Origin: an uncultured Verrucomicrobiae bacterium
GTDB lineage: Bacteria; Verrucomicrobiota; Verrucomicrobiia; Limisphaerales; Palsa-1400
Assembly: GCA_963707025.1 (NCBI GenBank)
Contig: CAVPOM010000006.1
Location: 256,001-320,000 of the forward strand
Direction: 5' to 3'
Length of the DNA stretch: 64,000 nucleotides
The position numbers were made by a program, and so were the translations under genes. This document shows positions 55,364-60,104 of this stretch, piece by piece. Within the stretch, counting starts at the first letter, position 1, and each line of letters begins with the position of its first letter. The notes beneath the pieces were generated by a model, which was given only the letters and a program-made list of their open reading frames with translations, was not told where the DNA came from and searched no databases.

Positions 55364-55791
55364 GCCGCCCTGATGCGTCAGTCATGGGTGGGCCGGAAAA
55401 GGTAGGGCGGGCAGTCCTCTGCCCGCCGCGCGACGGTAATGCGACGATGCTGCCTCTGCCAAAGCGACGGCGCGCAGGCGCCTGGACCTCCTTGCCAAAA
55501 AAGATTTGAGACGCTCGCGCCCCGCTCCTGAGCGGCTTGCTTGGGAGCGCGCGCATCGCGTTGTGTAGGTCGCATTGCGCCTGTGGCGCAAGTCCCGCTT
55601 CTTCCCGCTTCCGGGGAGCGCACGCGCCCTCGCGTGCTGCGGGCCGCGCCTCGCGGCCCGCAGTACCCCCCTCGTCAATGAAAGGGGTCCTCCTCATCCA
55701 ACCAAATGCTGTATTCCGTCACTTACCATAATCCATCCCCAAAAGCAACGAAAAATGACCGTTAAAAAATCGCTTTGGTTGAACAAATCCA

Positions 55792-55888: not shown

Positions 55889-56860
55889 ATGAGGAATGGC
55901 AAAATTGCAAAACTGCTCTCCACCGTCCGGGATGAGCTCAATGTGCGCATGGACAACGGCGAAAACGGCGGAAAACTTCTGCGCTGGCTCAACGGACTTC
56001 CTGAAGTCAAGGCGACGCTCCAGGCCAGCTTTGGCGGCCAGCCCGTCAGCAAGCAAAATCTCTGCGAATGGCGCCAGGGCGGCTTCCGCGAATGGCAGCT
56101 TCATTACCAATGGATTCATCAGGCTTATGAACTCAACCGGCTCACCACCGACATGGAGCAAGTGCTGGATGCGCCCATGCTGGCCGGCGACATGGCCAAA
56201 CTGCTGGCTGTCCGCTACGCCGCCCTCCTCAACACCTGGGATGGCGAGGCGGACCCGAAATTCGAGCGCGGCCTCCGCCTGCTGCGCGGCCTGGGCCAGG
56301 ACATCGCCTTGCTGCAAAGGACCTTGCATCGCTCCAGCCTCCAGGAAATTGCCTCCGACCAGCATTTTGAGGACGACTGCAACAAGAGAAGGGAGAAAAT
56401 AAGGGGGATGGCCATGGCCCCCATTTTGGCCAGGATGGAACAGAACAACCTGGAAAGGCTGTTTGGCAACTATGTGGACGAAGCGGCGGCCAGACGGCTC
56501 GCCGAATTTGTCACCGCCATCAAATTTAACCTGCCGCTGCCCAAAACGCCCCGACCGGAGCCGCCCGGTCAAACCTCCCGGTCAAACCCAAAGGCCCCGG
56601 CCGCCACTGTAGCCGCGGTCTGCGACCGTCGCACTCGTCGAACCTCCCGGTCAACGCCGGCGCCCGCGCCGGTTGTAGCGGCGGTCTGTGACCGTCGCAC
56701 TCCTCAAACCTCCCGGTCAAACCCGGTGTCATCGGCCCAGCCACTCAAACCCTCTCAGCCTCCGCCAACGCCGCCCGGTCAAACTGCTTTGCCCCCGGCT
56801 GTCCGGTCTGCTATGCCCGGCCAGGCCGCCGAAGAGCCGCCCGGTCAAACCGGGTCAAAC
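55889..56860 (+). CDS. Exon 1 of intron host gene: phage Mu gp27/DUF3486-like N-terminal domain plus PPGQT/SNP repeat tail (predicted exon 2 is 58820-58837)
   Basis: RNGKIAKL...VRDELN...LLRWLNGLPEV...SKQNLCEWRQGGF; tail built from CCGGTCAAAC repeats. Confidence 0.7.
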
Positions 56861-58819
56861 GTTGCGCCAGTGAAGTTGGTTGGAACGCGGGTGAAAGTCC
56901 CGTCCGTCGAATTAGGCTGTTCACGACGGAACACGACCTCAACAGCGCCGCCGCGAGGCGGGGTTGGAAGCTGAGGGAGATGAACAGACGGGCCGTAATG
57001 AAAATGAACCACATCCAATGAGCCTCGATAAGTTTAGAACCGGAGACAAGCCGAGCCGCTGTTTGACCGGCGAAGGCCGCAGGGAGGAGGCAGGGCAACA
57101 GTCAGAGCCTTCTCAACGCTCCGGCGGGGTCGGCGTGGACGGCACGTCTGGAAGTTCAACCAAGGTAAGCTGGGAGAACTCCGGCGGCGGGCGGCCAGCC
57201 CAACCGCCCGCGCAAGCTGGCAAGACCAGTCAGGCGAGCGGCCCTGCCGGAGAAGTCGGAGTTCCTCATAGTAGCGTGGACTTGTTTGCGCTCCAGGCGG
57301 ATTTCCGCCGGGAGTTGCGCGAGCGAACGCAAAGGGGGAACACTTGCTCAATGCGTGGAGGCGAAGCGAAGGATGCGGGGATGGCCGGGGCGACCCGGAT
57401 AGCAACCCCGGAGAAAGTTCGGCAGCTTCAAATCGCGCTCTATCGGAAAGCCAAAGCAGAGCCGAAGTATCGGTTCTGGAGCCTGTATGGGGAATTGCTG
57501 CGCAAGGACGTGCTCGAAACCGCCTTGGCAGCGCAACAGCGCAACGGCGGGGCCGCGGGAGTGGACGGACAGAGTATGGAGTCCATCACCGCCGACCCGG
57601 CCCTGCGCCAGCAATGGCTCGACCGCCTGCAAGCAGAACTCAAAGCCAAGACGTATCGGGCCAGCCCGGTGCGGCGGGTGATGATTCCCAAGAGCAGCGG
57701 AGGGGAACGGCCGTTGGGCATCCCGACGGTCAAGGACCGGGTGGTGCAAACGGCGGTGTATCTGGTGCTGATGCCGATCTTGGAGGCGGACTTTCATCCG
57801 CGCTCCTACGGCTTTCGGCCCAAACGCCGGGCACACCAAGCCATTGCGGAAATCCAACAAGCAGTGCAGCAAGGCTACGTGGAAATCATCAACGCGGACC
57901 TGACGAAATATTTCGACACGATTCCGCACCGGGAACTGATGAAGGCCGTGGCCCGGCGGGTCAGCGACGGCAGCGTGCTGCGGCTCCTCAAGAGCTGGCT
58001 GCGCGCCCCGGTCGCGGAGGAAGACCAGGACGGCACCAAGCGAGTGATCCCCAACCGGCGCGGCACGCCGCAAGGCGGGGTCATCTCGCCGCTGCTGGCC
58101 AACCTCTACCTCAACCCGCTGGATCACGGGGTGAACGAGAAAACCTCCGGCCAAGCCCGCATGGTGCGCTACGCCGATGACTTTGTCATCGCGTGCGCGG
58201 CGGGGTGCGGCGGAGGGCTGATAGCGCGGCTCAAGAAATGGCTTCGAGCCAAAGGGCTGACCCTCAACGAAGTCAAAACCCGAATTGTGAACATTCGCAA
58301 GGAAGGGATCAACTTCCTGGGCTTCAACCTGACCTGGCGCAAGTCCTTTGGAGGGCGCGGCTACCTGCACGTTCAACCCAGCCAGAAAAGCCGGGGGGCC
58401 CTGCGCGAGAAACTGGGCGGCATCCTCAACCACTGGACGCAGGGGCGTCCGATACAGGAGGTGGTCAAAGAGGTCAACCAAGTCTTGCGCGGATGGGCGG
58501 GCTACTTCCACTACGGCAACAGCGTCTCGGTGATGAACCGGATGAAACACTACAGCCAAAACCGCTTTCGGCGCTGGCTGTGGCGCAAACACGGTTGCCG
58601 CCGCAGCCTGTGGGAACACTACGTTCCCGAGCAGTTGCACCAGCGTTATGGACTCTATGAACTGCCGACCACGGCGAAGTGGAAGGCGGCCCGATGAATG
58701 AGTTCGGAGAGCCGAATATGGGAAATCCGTCCGTTCGGTTCGATGAGGGGCGAAGTGGCAGCGCGAGACTGACAACTGCGGTCAGTTCAATCCGCCTCCT
58801 TCCACTTCGCCTACTCTAC
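56861..58819 (+). mobile_element. Group II intron (complete ribozyme plus IEP)
   Basis: 5' GTTGCG; EBS1 hairpin gccg-ctgtttgac-cggc-gaaggc at 57055-57077; D5 gagccgaatatgggaaatccgtccgttcggttc; D6 ending ...cttcgcctactctAC. Confidence 0.92.
57381..58697 (+). CDS. ltrA: Group II intron reverse transcriptase/maturase, no endonuclease domain
   Basis: GAAGVDG, RPLGIPTVKDR, SYGFRP, DLTKYFD, GTPQGGVISPLLANLYL, RYADD, FLGF, LRGWAGYF. Confidence 0.95.
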   Translation: MAGATRIATPEKVRQLQIALYRKAKAEPKYRFWSLYGELLRKDVLETALAAQQRNGGAAGVDGQSMESITADPALRQQWLDRLQAELKAKTYRASPVRRVMIPKSSGGERPLGIPTVKDRVVQTAVYLVLMPILEADFHPRSYGFRPKRRAHQAIAEIQQAVQQGYVEIINADLTKYFDTIPHRELMKAVARRVSDGSVLRLLKSWLRAPVAEEDQDGTKRVIPNRRGTPQGGVISPLLANLYLNPLDHGVNEKTSGQARMVRYADDFVIACAAGCGGGLIARLKKWLRAKGLTLNEVKTRIVNIRKEGINFLGFNLTWRKSFGGRGYLHVQPSQKSRGALREKLGGILNHWTQGRPIQEVVKEVNQVLRGWAGYFHYGNSVSVMNRMKHYSQNRFRRWLWRKHGCRRSLWEHYVPEQLHQRYGLYELPTTAKWKAAR

Positions 58820-58955
58820 CATAATTGTGAAGCTTGACCACCTTGACCATGAGCATCCACTCCACCACTCCACCACTCCATTCGGCCTCCGCATTGCGCC
58901 TGCGTCCCGCTTGCTTTATCCGCGGACTCAATTATTCTGCAAGACCTGATTTGAT

Positions 58956-60104
58956 ATGCAATTGGACAATGACGAAATCCGGCGCTACTCGCGCCACTTG
59001 ATTCTGCCGGAGGTCGGGCTGGCCGGGCAGAAGAAGATTTGCTCGACCAGCGTGCTGTGCATCGGCGCGGGGGGGCTGGGTTCGCCCATCGCCATGTACC
59101 TGGCGGCGGCGGGCATCGGCAAGCTGGGCCTGGTGGATTTTGACACGGTGGATTTTTCCAATCTCCAGCGCCAGATCATCCACGGCACCGCCGACGTGGG
59201 CCGGCCCAAAATCCAATCGGCCCGCGACACCATCCACCGCATCAACCCCAACGTCGAAGTGGCGCTGCACAATGCCCGCCTGACCAGCGAAAACGCGCTG
59301 GAGATTCTCGCCCCGTACGACATCGTGGTGGACGGGACGGACAACTTTCCCACGCGCTACCTGACCAACGACGCGTGCGTGCTGCTGAAAAAGCCCAACA
59401 TCTACGGTTCGATTTTTCGATTTGAAGGGCAGGCCAGTGTGTTCGCGCCGCATTTGCACGGCCCGTGTTACCGCTGTTTGTATCCCGAACCGCCGCCGCC
59501 CGGCATGGTGCCCAGTTGCGCGGAAGGCGGCGTGCTGGGCGTGCTGCCCGGCATCATCGGCTGCATCCAGGCCACCGAGATTTTGAAATTGGCCCTGGGC
59601 AAGGGCAGTTCCCTCCTGGGCCGGCTGCTCCTGCTCGACGCCCTGGAAATGAAGTTCCGCGAACTCCGGCTCCGCCCCGATCCCCAATGCCCATTGTGCG
59701 GCGAAAATCCCACGATCACGCAGTTGATGGATTACCAGGTGTTCTGCGGCATCCCCGACGCCCCGGCCCAGCCGGCCTCCAACCCGGACGAAGTGACCGT
59801 GCAGCAGATGAAACAGGCCCTGGACGACCCCAAGCTGGGGATCCAGGTCATTGATGTGCGCGAGCCGGATGAACATCAAATCGCCCACGTCCAGGGGGTG
59901 CCGCTCATCCCCTTGAGTGTGTTGCCGCAACGCTTCACCGAGCTGGATCCCAACCAGCACATTTACATCCATTGCAAAAGCGGCGCGCGCTCCCTCAAGG
60001 CGCTGCAATTCCTGCGCGAACAAGGCTACAAGTACTTGAAGAGTGTCCGGGGCGGCATCAACGCCTGGGCGGACGAAGTGGACCACAATGTTCCGAAGTA
60101 TTGA
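58956..60104 (+). CDS. moeB: MoeB/MoeZ adenylyltransferase with rhodanese domain
   Basis: RYSRH, IGAGGLGSP, SNLQRQ, DGTDNF, CYRC, DVRE...HCKSGARS. Confidence 0.95.
   Translation: MQLDNDEIRRYSRHLILPEVGLAGQKKICSTSVLCIGAGGLGSPIAMYLAAAGIGKLGLVDFDTVDFSNLQRQIIHGTADVGRPKIQSARDTIHRINPNVEVALHNARLTSENALEILAPYDIVVDGTDNFPTRYLTNDACVLLKKPNIYGSIFRFEGQASVFAPHLHGPCYRCLYPEPPPPGMVPSCAEGGVLGVLPGIIGCIQATEILKLALGKGSSLLGRLLLLDALEMKFRELRLRPDPQCPLCGENPTITQLMDYQVFCGIPDAPAQPASNPDEVTVQQMKQALDDPKLGIQVIDVREPDEHQIAHVQGVPLIPLSVLPQRFTELDPNQHIYIHCKSGARSLKALQFLREQGYKYLKSVRGGINAWADEVDHNVPKY

Follow-up and report, generated by a model that had tools for sequence, protein, structure and literature searches.

The DNA analysed here, a stretch of 64,000 nucleotides (nt) from an uncultured Verrucomicrobiae bacterium (GenBank assembly GCA_963707025.1, contig CAVPOM010000006.1, forward-strand positions 256,001 to 320,000; hereafter the window), carries near its end a group II intron that was inserted into the short tandem array forming the 3' terminus of a gene for a conserved hypothetical protein. 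Our results suggest, with a probability that we put at about 85%, that this intron belongs to an active or very recently active retroelement without an endonuclease (En-less) that homes to a dispersed tandem repeat and not to a unique gene. The targeting is ordinary homing by base pairing between exon-binding sites (EBS) of the intron RNA and intron-binding sites (IBS) of the exons, specialised on a dispersed tandem decamer.

In the mechanism that we propose, the intron RNA would read two neighbouring units of the 10-nt array: EBS1 (GUUUGAC) would pair with the GTCAAAC of one unit and EBS2 (GUUU) with the AAAC of the preceding unit, and the C that follows the unit would be the likely IBS3. Reverse splicing would then occur behind the EBS1-bound unit, and reverse transcription would presumably be primed without an endonuclease. 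Because dozens of arrays are available, mostly in spacers upstream of co-oriented genes, the intron could have reached 16 copies without cutting coding sequence, and its orientation at the arrays is such that host transcription could make its RNA, from which it would be spliced in vivo. In sister genomes, where the array unit is written in another "dialect," EBS1 and EBS2 have changed to match it.

The ribozyme, its protein and its pairing loops

The intron comprises 1959 nt (56861..58819, + strand; 5' GUUGCG ... CUAC 3'). Matches to the Rfam families RF02005 (domains D1-D4; 56894-57139, 63.3 bits, E = 2.5e-16, gathering score 49) and RF00029 (D5/D6; 58707-58819, 42.6 bits against a gathering score of 40) together identify a six-domain ribozyme that includes domains V and VI. 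Both borders, 56861 (GUUGCG) and 58819 (..CUAC), were set independently by comparison of the occupied site at C4:746013 (contig and position) with an empty paralogous site on contig C14, where the flanks found at C4:746013 are joined directly; the 5' border falls immediately behind the last repeat copy, where the initial annotation had placed it. The consensus ends of group II introns are 5' GUGYG and 3' AY. The 3' end of the window intron fits this consensus, and its 5' end, GUUGCG, is one base longer than GUGCG; this longer form is identical in all 16 copies of the genome and in relatives from three further genomes (G014, G019, and G020) and at locus L047, whereas the distant relatives L048-L054 begin with GUGCG.

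Between the two Rfam matches, in domain IV, an open reading frame (ORF) at 57381..58697 (+ strand) encodes the intron-encoded protein (IEP), a reverse transcriptase and maturase (Pfam RVT_1, E = 2e-38; GIIM, E = 9.6e-15). These two domains were the only ones found by Pfam, the C-terminus ends 32 amino acids (aa) past GIIM, and the H-N-H endonuclease domain is absent, which is the mark of an En-minus intron. Identity to rhizobial ltrA proteins is at most 45-47% (tblastn against plasmids), a level from which no class assignment follows.

EBS1 (GUUUGAC; 57061..57067, + strand) lies in the 9-nt terminal loop of a hairpin at 57050-57077. The alignment to RF02005 resolves this hairpin as gccg-CUGUUUGAC-cggc, with CUGUUUGAC as the terminal loop at high posterior probability, and the last seven bases of the loop are exactly complementary to exon bases 56854-56860, so that the EBS1 proposed from the letters alone (57061-57070, read from the sequence as GTTTGACCGG) was borne out. 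The partner, IBS1 (GTCAAAC; 56854..56860, + strand), occupies exon positions -7 to -1 in the last array unit. EBS2 (GUUU; 57032..57035, + strand) is part of a 12-nt stretch of domain I, AUAAGUUUAGAA (57028-57039), which the alignment columns leave unpaired between two helices of the EBS1-bearing arm; the EBS2 bulge lies 25 nt upstream of EBS1. IBS2 (AAAC; 56847..56850, + strand; exon positions -14 to -11) belongs to the penultimate unit and is the same word that recurs in IBS1, one unit or exactly 10 nt further upstream. Both pairings are complete in the window (7/7 and 4/4), and they covary with the target in three more genomes. The structure built on the RF02005 alignment has a free energy of -41.4 kcal/mol, compared with -42.0 for the minimum-free-energy fold. 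The first base of exon 2, presumed to be IBS3, is C in all 16 copies of the genome (15 CA, 1 CG); among relatives with the 3' junction covered, it is C in six of eight copies and T in the other two.

Sixteen copies and the sites that they occupy

Sixteen full-length copies were found on 11 contigs of the genome to which the window belongs (G000; 6.96 Mb in 18 contigs); they are 99.745-100% identical and differ in only seven alignment columns. Their flanks are unrelated or just 75-94% alike over 60-400 nt, save for those of the window copy and C4:375642, which sit in paralogous genes and share 1005 nt upstream at 99% identity. Some occupied sites have empty paralogs, such as C14 for C4:746013 and C12:24448 for the 3' flank of the window copy. 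Near-identical introns within diverged flanks, together with these empty paralogs, point to independent insertions and not to duplications. The groups of paralogous flanks and the long stretch shared by the window and C4 copies would also be expected if blocks of repeat plus intron had been multiplied by segmental duplication or recombination, or by faulty assembly, with the arrays carried along. However, the introns are far more alike than the flanks, some members of the flank groups are empty, the copies are spread over 11 contigs beside different neighbor genes, and occupancy follows a 10-nt spacing rule that duplication would not be expected to create; we consider such an origin very improbable.

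GTCAAAC stands directly 5' of 15 of the 16 copies, and tandem arrays of a 9-10-nt unit, (N)GGTCAAACC, surround 14 of them. The genome contains 1443 GTCAAAC heptamers, only 15 of which are followed by the intron, and 59 array sites, of which 14 are occupied and 45 are empty. The spacing between the two words, counted as AAAC-Nx-GTCAAAC, served as a control of register: occupancy was 12/46 at N3, compared with 0/25 at N2, 0/7 at N4, and 1/11 at N5, and no site was occupied at N0-1 or N6-7. Across the copies of this genome, the EBS2 word GUUU pairs with AAAC in all four positions in 13/16 cases, one of them via a G-U pair, and pairing is poor in one copy. The resulting rule, two units 10 nt apart and then a C, is simple and checkable and predicts which of the 1443 heptamers are hit. 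The intron never occupies the arrays of a second family, (GGGGTCAAAG)n GGGGTCAAAC and then CATATATTTGC, even though these end in GTCAAAC|CA; they have AAAG at the IBS2 position (C6:59671 and C16:109395, and, on the - strand, C12 393150 and 395567, C18 83654, and C7 425098).

In the window, the intron lies six codons ahead of the stop codon of its host gene (exon 1, 55889..56860, + strand, 972 nt or 324 codons; exon 2, 58820..58837, + strand, CAT AAT TGT GAA GCT TGA), behind two array units 10 nt apart at 56841..56860 (+ strand; CCGGTCAAAC CGGGTCAAAC). Reading the sequence by eye confirmed that removal of 56861-58819 restores the frame (..GSN-HNCEA-stop). The five exact copies of CCGGTCAAAC reported on the + strand were all recovered (56565, 56578, 56713, 56775, and 56841); on the - strand the motif occurs once, at 57061 in the EBS1 loop, and the 64 kb hold no further exact copy. 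Allowing up to one mismatch raises the number of matches to 21, where 5.95 are expected; none of 100 shuffles reached this number. As to the two variants reported, the one at 56851 (CGGGTCAAAC) is as described, whereas the one at 56647 departs from the motif at two positions (GTCAACG at 56650).

From this local repetition the initial annotation had proposed a multi-copy landing pad in the form of a coding microsatellite tail (PGQT/SNP or PGQT/SRSN) of one Verrucomicrobial gene family, with the motif copies within the gene as alternative sites. The repeated, multi-copy nature of the target stands; its confinement to a coding tail does not. Two copies, those in the window and at C4:375642, do lie at the end of this gene, and tails of the type ..GQTQSNPVKPE.EV* are present in 56/120 homologs from other Verrucomicrobiota (by our own regular expression). 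Yet the host gene family accounts for just these two insertions, and the other 14 are outside it; the genome-wide count placed the 59 array sites mostly in spacers rather than in one gene family; the array unit is read in all three frames, none of which is consistently open over the 14 sites translated of the 59; and the genes downstream of the sites are unrelated to one another. Within the host gene itself, AAAC is present at positions -14 to -11 only before the last of six exact GTCAAAC copies, which is the occupied one; the other five, lacking IBS2, would be poor targets, and none of them is occupied in either paralog. That the gene tail as such is the landing pad therefore appears most unlikely. 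The tail peptide is encoded by three decamers in tandem, each read in the next of the three frames, and the stop codon falls within an inverted copy; the 3'-end array is retained in homologs down to about 45% identity. Since this tail is widespread in the family, the array at the end of the host gene is old, and the window intron used one array among many.

One further, distant gene for a group II-type reverse transcriptase was seen in the same genome (C15:110667-111665, - strand). Its product has 45% identity to the IEP, its frame contains a TAG, and it probably represents the decayed remains of an intron from a different lineage. GC skew on the intron sense strand is positive for 11/16 copies and for 8/31 empty sites. 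As a proxy for the replication strand, GC skew proved unusable, its correlation with the coding strand in this genome being weakly negative (r = -0.20), and the counts therefore do not bear on the bias toward the lagging-strand template that is known for En-less introns.

Decamer arrays and their dialects in related genomes

The arrays of the window's genome have a unit spacing of 9 nt in 17 cases and of 10 nt in 36. Of 30 further genomes from the family, 16 contained GTCAAAC-N3-GTCAAAC; none of 30 genomes from other families of the order did, and reversed controls were near zero. Being tandem, mostly noncoding, restricted to a lineage, and present at many loci, the arrays have the attributes of a dispersed short tandem repeat. 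Most of them are located in long spacers and precede co-oriented genes of unrelated function by 100-550 nt. With crude ORF calls in G000, the nearest downstream ORF was co-oriented in 40/46 cases (median distance, 284 nt) and the nearest upstream ORF in 27/42 (median distance, 624 nt), although these counts are not independent, as neighboring sites share genes and two of the "downstream ORFs" are intron ORFs. Downstream genes, judged by eye save for a ThiF/rhodanese gene identified by Pfam, include those for glycosidases, a purine-synthesis enzyme, a release-factor methylase, pyruvate-phosphate dikinase, a hydrogenase-maturation protein, a ribosomal protein, and others; the arrays were rejected as a regulon because these genes share no common function. 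A typical empty site consists of two to four units of ..CCGGTCAAACC, then CA, a T-rich stretch, AACCTTGACC, ATG, and repeats of the CACTCC type. An inverted [TG]TGACC follows within 45 nt at 31/59 array sites, compared with 3% of random 45-nt windows. The possibility that TTGACC is a -35 promoter box was rejected, since TAnnnT was found 16-19 nt after it at 0/32 sites.

Arrays are also abundant in genomes that gave no match to the IEP at E <= 1e-60 (G025, with 211 arrays; G023, with 30; G004, with 29), which indicates that the arrays are host features and not products of the intron. The opposite view, that the intron or its reverse transcriptase made the arrays as footprints of insertion and loss or through template slippage, might draw on the joint presence of arrays and intron in four genomes and on the match between dialect and intron loops. 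Against it, besides the arrays of genomes with no such IEP match, stand the retention of the host-gene array in distant homologs and the 45 of 59 sites that are empty in G000, and target duplication is not known from group II retrohoming. An origin of the arrays from the intron is thus hardly credible to us.

Several other features accompany the arrays. A composite unit, made of an array, about 95 nt of conserved sequence (in which GTGAGGGATAAAAATGTGGAAGACCCTCAC and a possible ORF of about 30 codons starting with MWK are found), and a second array, was seen five times in G000 (C7:414046-414181; C7:204396-204520; C13:76138-76264; C18:613633-613759; and C7 near 462,000, with - strand sites 88807/88918). 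The intron is present in the second array of three of these five. Pairs of array matches spaced 110-112 nt apart also occur in G014 and G019, and the composite unit seems to be conserved across genera. Spacers with arrays also hold runs of TGCATTT upstream and of CACTCCA(C/T) downstream, and a recurrent module of about 100 nt upstream of the arrays links many sites by BLAST.

A protein search of 60 related genomes for the IEP found close relatives (85-89% identity) in four of them: G014 (seven places), G019 (one), G020 (three), and G003 (a fragment). Comparison of their 5' flanks and EBS1 loops, through which the initial annotation had expected its proposal to be checked, showed the same kind of repeat with matching loops. 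In G000, the EBS2/EBS1 pair GUUU/GUUUGAC faces AAAC/GTCAAAC as IBS2/IBS1. In G014, CUUU/GUUUGAU faces AAAG/ATCAAAC after ..GTCAAAGTGAATCAAAC, with EBS2 pairing in 4/4 positions in five of six copies (one via G-U). The single copy of G019 pairs GUUU/GUUUGAU with AAAC/ATCAAAC after ..GGTCAAACTGAATCAAAC (1/1), and in G020 GUGC/GUGUGAC faces GCAC/GTCGCAC after ..AGTCGCACCCGGTCGCAC, where EBS2 pairs 4/4 in two of three copies and EBS1 pairs in full, with one G-U pair, in two of three. Each of these unit variants is the dominant dialect of its own genome: GTCGCAC-N3-GTCGCAC occurs 61 times in G020 and 0-1 times in four other genomes, and TCAAAG-N3-RTCAAAS occurs 77 times in G014 and 45 times in G019, compared with 3-6 times elsewhere, which is no more than in the reversed-pattern control.

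More distant relatives came from the genome collection, and their pairings, bulge with exon positions -15 to -10, were read by eye. Five copies with 57% identity in one Verrucomicrobiae chromosome (L048-L052) have EBS1 ACCCGAA and the bulge CCGAAA and lie after ..TTTCGGATTTCGGGT. All five follow ..T(T/C)TCGGA(T/G)TTCGGGT, and their EBS1 and EBS2 are near-copies of each other; judged from these sequences, this is another case in which both loops would read a short direct repeat. L054 (55%) and L047 (66%) pair through the same bulge as the EBS2 of the window. In a wetland RNA library, which may contain DNA, one contig joins the 5' end of a related intron to CCAATCAAGG repeats ending in ATTAAGG, and another contig of the run, not physically linked to the first, has an EBS1, CCUUAAU, that is the exact complement of ATTAAGG. 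A soil DNA run contains a near-identical intron at yet another ..GTCAAAC site.

On this basis, we tentatively suggest, at somewhat below even odds, that "tandem-repeat homing" represents a further targeting strategy alongside unique homing sites, terminators, and attC sites, in which EBS1 and EBS2 have converged on successive units of one repeat. The arrays would be functional elements, bound by a factor and situated upstream of genes or in their leaders, their sequence would drift between genera, and the intron would co-evolve with the dialect, either in a three-way arms race among host element, binding factor, and intron or by hitchhiking.

Several observations weigh against homing to a dispersed tandem repeat or limit its generality. 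With regard to structure, the Rfam fold does not stand out when 57016-57136 is folded on its own by free energy (z = -0.04), the EBS2-IBS2 pairing of the window comprises only 4 bp, and EBS3 was not located. In G000, some 20 sites are empty despite fitting the rule, IBS2 is AAAG in two copies (3/4 pairs), C4:333216 lies in a different decamer array (CAAGCCAAAT) that EBS1 meets with one mismatch and one G-U pair, and C11:46161 follows a lone unit with no array. Moreover, the IEP frame is intact in 7/16 copies; in the other nine, a 1-nt homopolymer difference, real or an assembly error (G5 in place of G6 at 58388-58393), splits it into 341 and 107 aa. The distribution of this difference does not track the pattern of single-nucleotide polymorphisms among the copies, and it may reflect homopolymer assembly error, recurrent slippage, or nonautonomous copies mobilised in trans. 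Among the relatives, a G014 subfamily with EBS1 GGUUGAU has a mismatch at position -2 in all three copies with the flank covered, another G014 copy (L031) lies at a nonarray site with poor pairing, one G020 copy follows GTCAAAC with one mismatch, and the kin are not independent, so that the covariation rests on three or four lineages. Finally, neither ligated exons nor an empty site at the window locus was found in contigs from runs X2, X3, and X4 (DNA) and X15 (RNA) at 90% likeness, none of which bridges the intron, so that they are uninformative on splicing and empty alleles.

The sides of the joints in these contigs are short (20-37 nt, at 90% likeness), and the joints probably stem from other reverse transcriptase genes or from relatives. 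Two of those in X15 RNA contigs (57162>58800 and 57186>58704, with sides of 21-26 nt) pass from domain I/II directly to domain V/VI, with the ORF left out, and may represent ORF-less derivatives of related introns.

Known systems and the host locus

A bacterial genome usually contains only a few group II introns, each needing a long unique site, and the known ways around this limit are terminators and attC sites, as used by group IIC introns, and divergent specificity. The natural home of RmInt1 of Sinorhizobium meliloti is an insertion-sequence gene; that of the window intron is instead a 10-nt tandem array, with EBS1 and EBS2 placed on two units of one repeat. The two are otherwise similar: according to the accessible parts of the published accounts, RmInt1 and its relatives are En-less IIB introns whose IEP is a reverse transcriptase and maturase without an endonuclease, which reach a high copy number in one genome, whose target is set by EBS-IBS pairing, and whose related introns diverge in specificity to colonise the genome (PMC4615759, PMC8914252).

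Three target specificities, namely, homing sites, terminators, and attC sites, and four En-minus lineages, classes C, D, E, and F, are named in the available portion of a further account (PMC4424553). Group IIC introns resemble the window intron in using a multicopy, mostly intergenic motif on which they can spread with little harm; in the sections accessible to us, they are described as recognizing a DNA hairpin together with short EBS1 and EBS3 pairings (PMC4424553, PMC12584367). The window intron, in contrast, has RF02005 as its best Rfam family, pairs through a 7-nt EBS1 and an EBS2, and targets a direct repeat at fixed spacing with no stem-loop, and the group IIC combination of a hairpin site, a short IBS1, and no EBS2 is thus not found in it. 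The introns of Thermosynechococcus elongatus reportedly spread by divergence to many sites and by relaxed specificity, whereas the window intron needs only one specificity, since the site itself is repeated. The T. elongatus family is similar in that closely related bacterial group II introns have proliferated within a genome, as summarized in the part of the source at hand (PMC2882425).

With respect to the arrays, the closest parallel is with the TAACTGA repeats of Beggiatoaceae, which likewise consist of two to six short tandem units at many loci, are restricted to a lineage, and stand upstream of genes without a common function (PMC4679880, from partial text). The arrays have a unit of 9-10 nt and a median distance of 284 nt to the downstream ORF, compared with 7 nt and a few nucleotides before the start codon for TAACTGA, and the arrays are usually followed, after 12-14 nt, by an inverted partial copy; the portion of that paper at hand reports no mobile intron targeting TAACTGA repeats (PMC4679880). 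No published account of introns homing to tandem repeats, or of such arrays, was found in a search outside of which most subscription journals lie. Within the literature searched, a decamer array that is specific to the family, is trailed by an inverted copy, and precedes many genes in these Verrucomicrobia is therefore previously undescribed. The intron would keep its base-pairing specificity and direct it to a short repeat distributed over dozens of spacers by the host itself. This offers a test bed for the constraint that EBS2 spacing places on reverse splicing, for the tracking of a moving target by an intron across genera, and for the search of retroelements for "safe," transcribed, multicopy niches, and it bears on models of intron proliferation.

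The host gene encodes a protein with a helical core of about 225-237 aa and a tail composed of DNA repeats; its 128 homologs with E <= 1e-3 are all annotated as hypothetical and all belong to Verrucomicrobiota. The protein has no Pfam family, and three of four family proteins scanned gave no match at E up to 10, the homolog P0011 giving only a subthreshold match to FANCL_C (E = 0.2, 12.4 bits against a cutoff of 27.3). A weak match to phrog_426 (small-terminase N terminus; E = 0.0015-0.0047) was obtained with two of the same four proteins, the homologs P0011 and P0017, and not with the host protein of the window. An AlphaFold model of P0017 is all helical (pLDDT 77), with no fold match in the PDB at E <= 0.001 (Foldseek), and the best hit in a PDB profile search had an E value of 0.6. 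That the host protein might bind the arrays is pure speculation.

The tail of the gene also contains two 66-nt tandem units at 56593..56724 (+ strand; repeat search, 80% identity), each of which combines a small hairpin, CGGTCTGCGACCG, with two array units at a spacing of 13 nt and is translated as ..VAAVCDRRT..; the protein of the C4 paralog (P0002) has three such units. Two inverted partial array units, noted initially and present as CTTGACC twice (58833..58839 and 58842..58848, + strand), follow the intron, with the stop codon of the host gene inside the first. The next gene, a co-oriented one of the ThiF/MoeB type with a rhodanese domain (58956..60104, + strand; Pfam ThiF, E = 2.7e-83; Rhodanese, E = 5.1e-16), begins 137 nt past the insertion site. 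Host gene and intron lie between the two imperfect copies of a direct repeat about 30 nt long (CGCATTGCGCCTG..GTCCCGCTT; 55572-55616 and 58887-58923); considered as attachment (att) sites, these copies have no counterpart at the C4 paralog of the host gene, and a 13-mer of the repeat occurs only three times in the genome.

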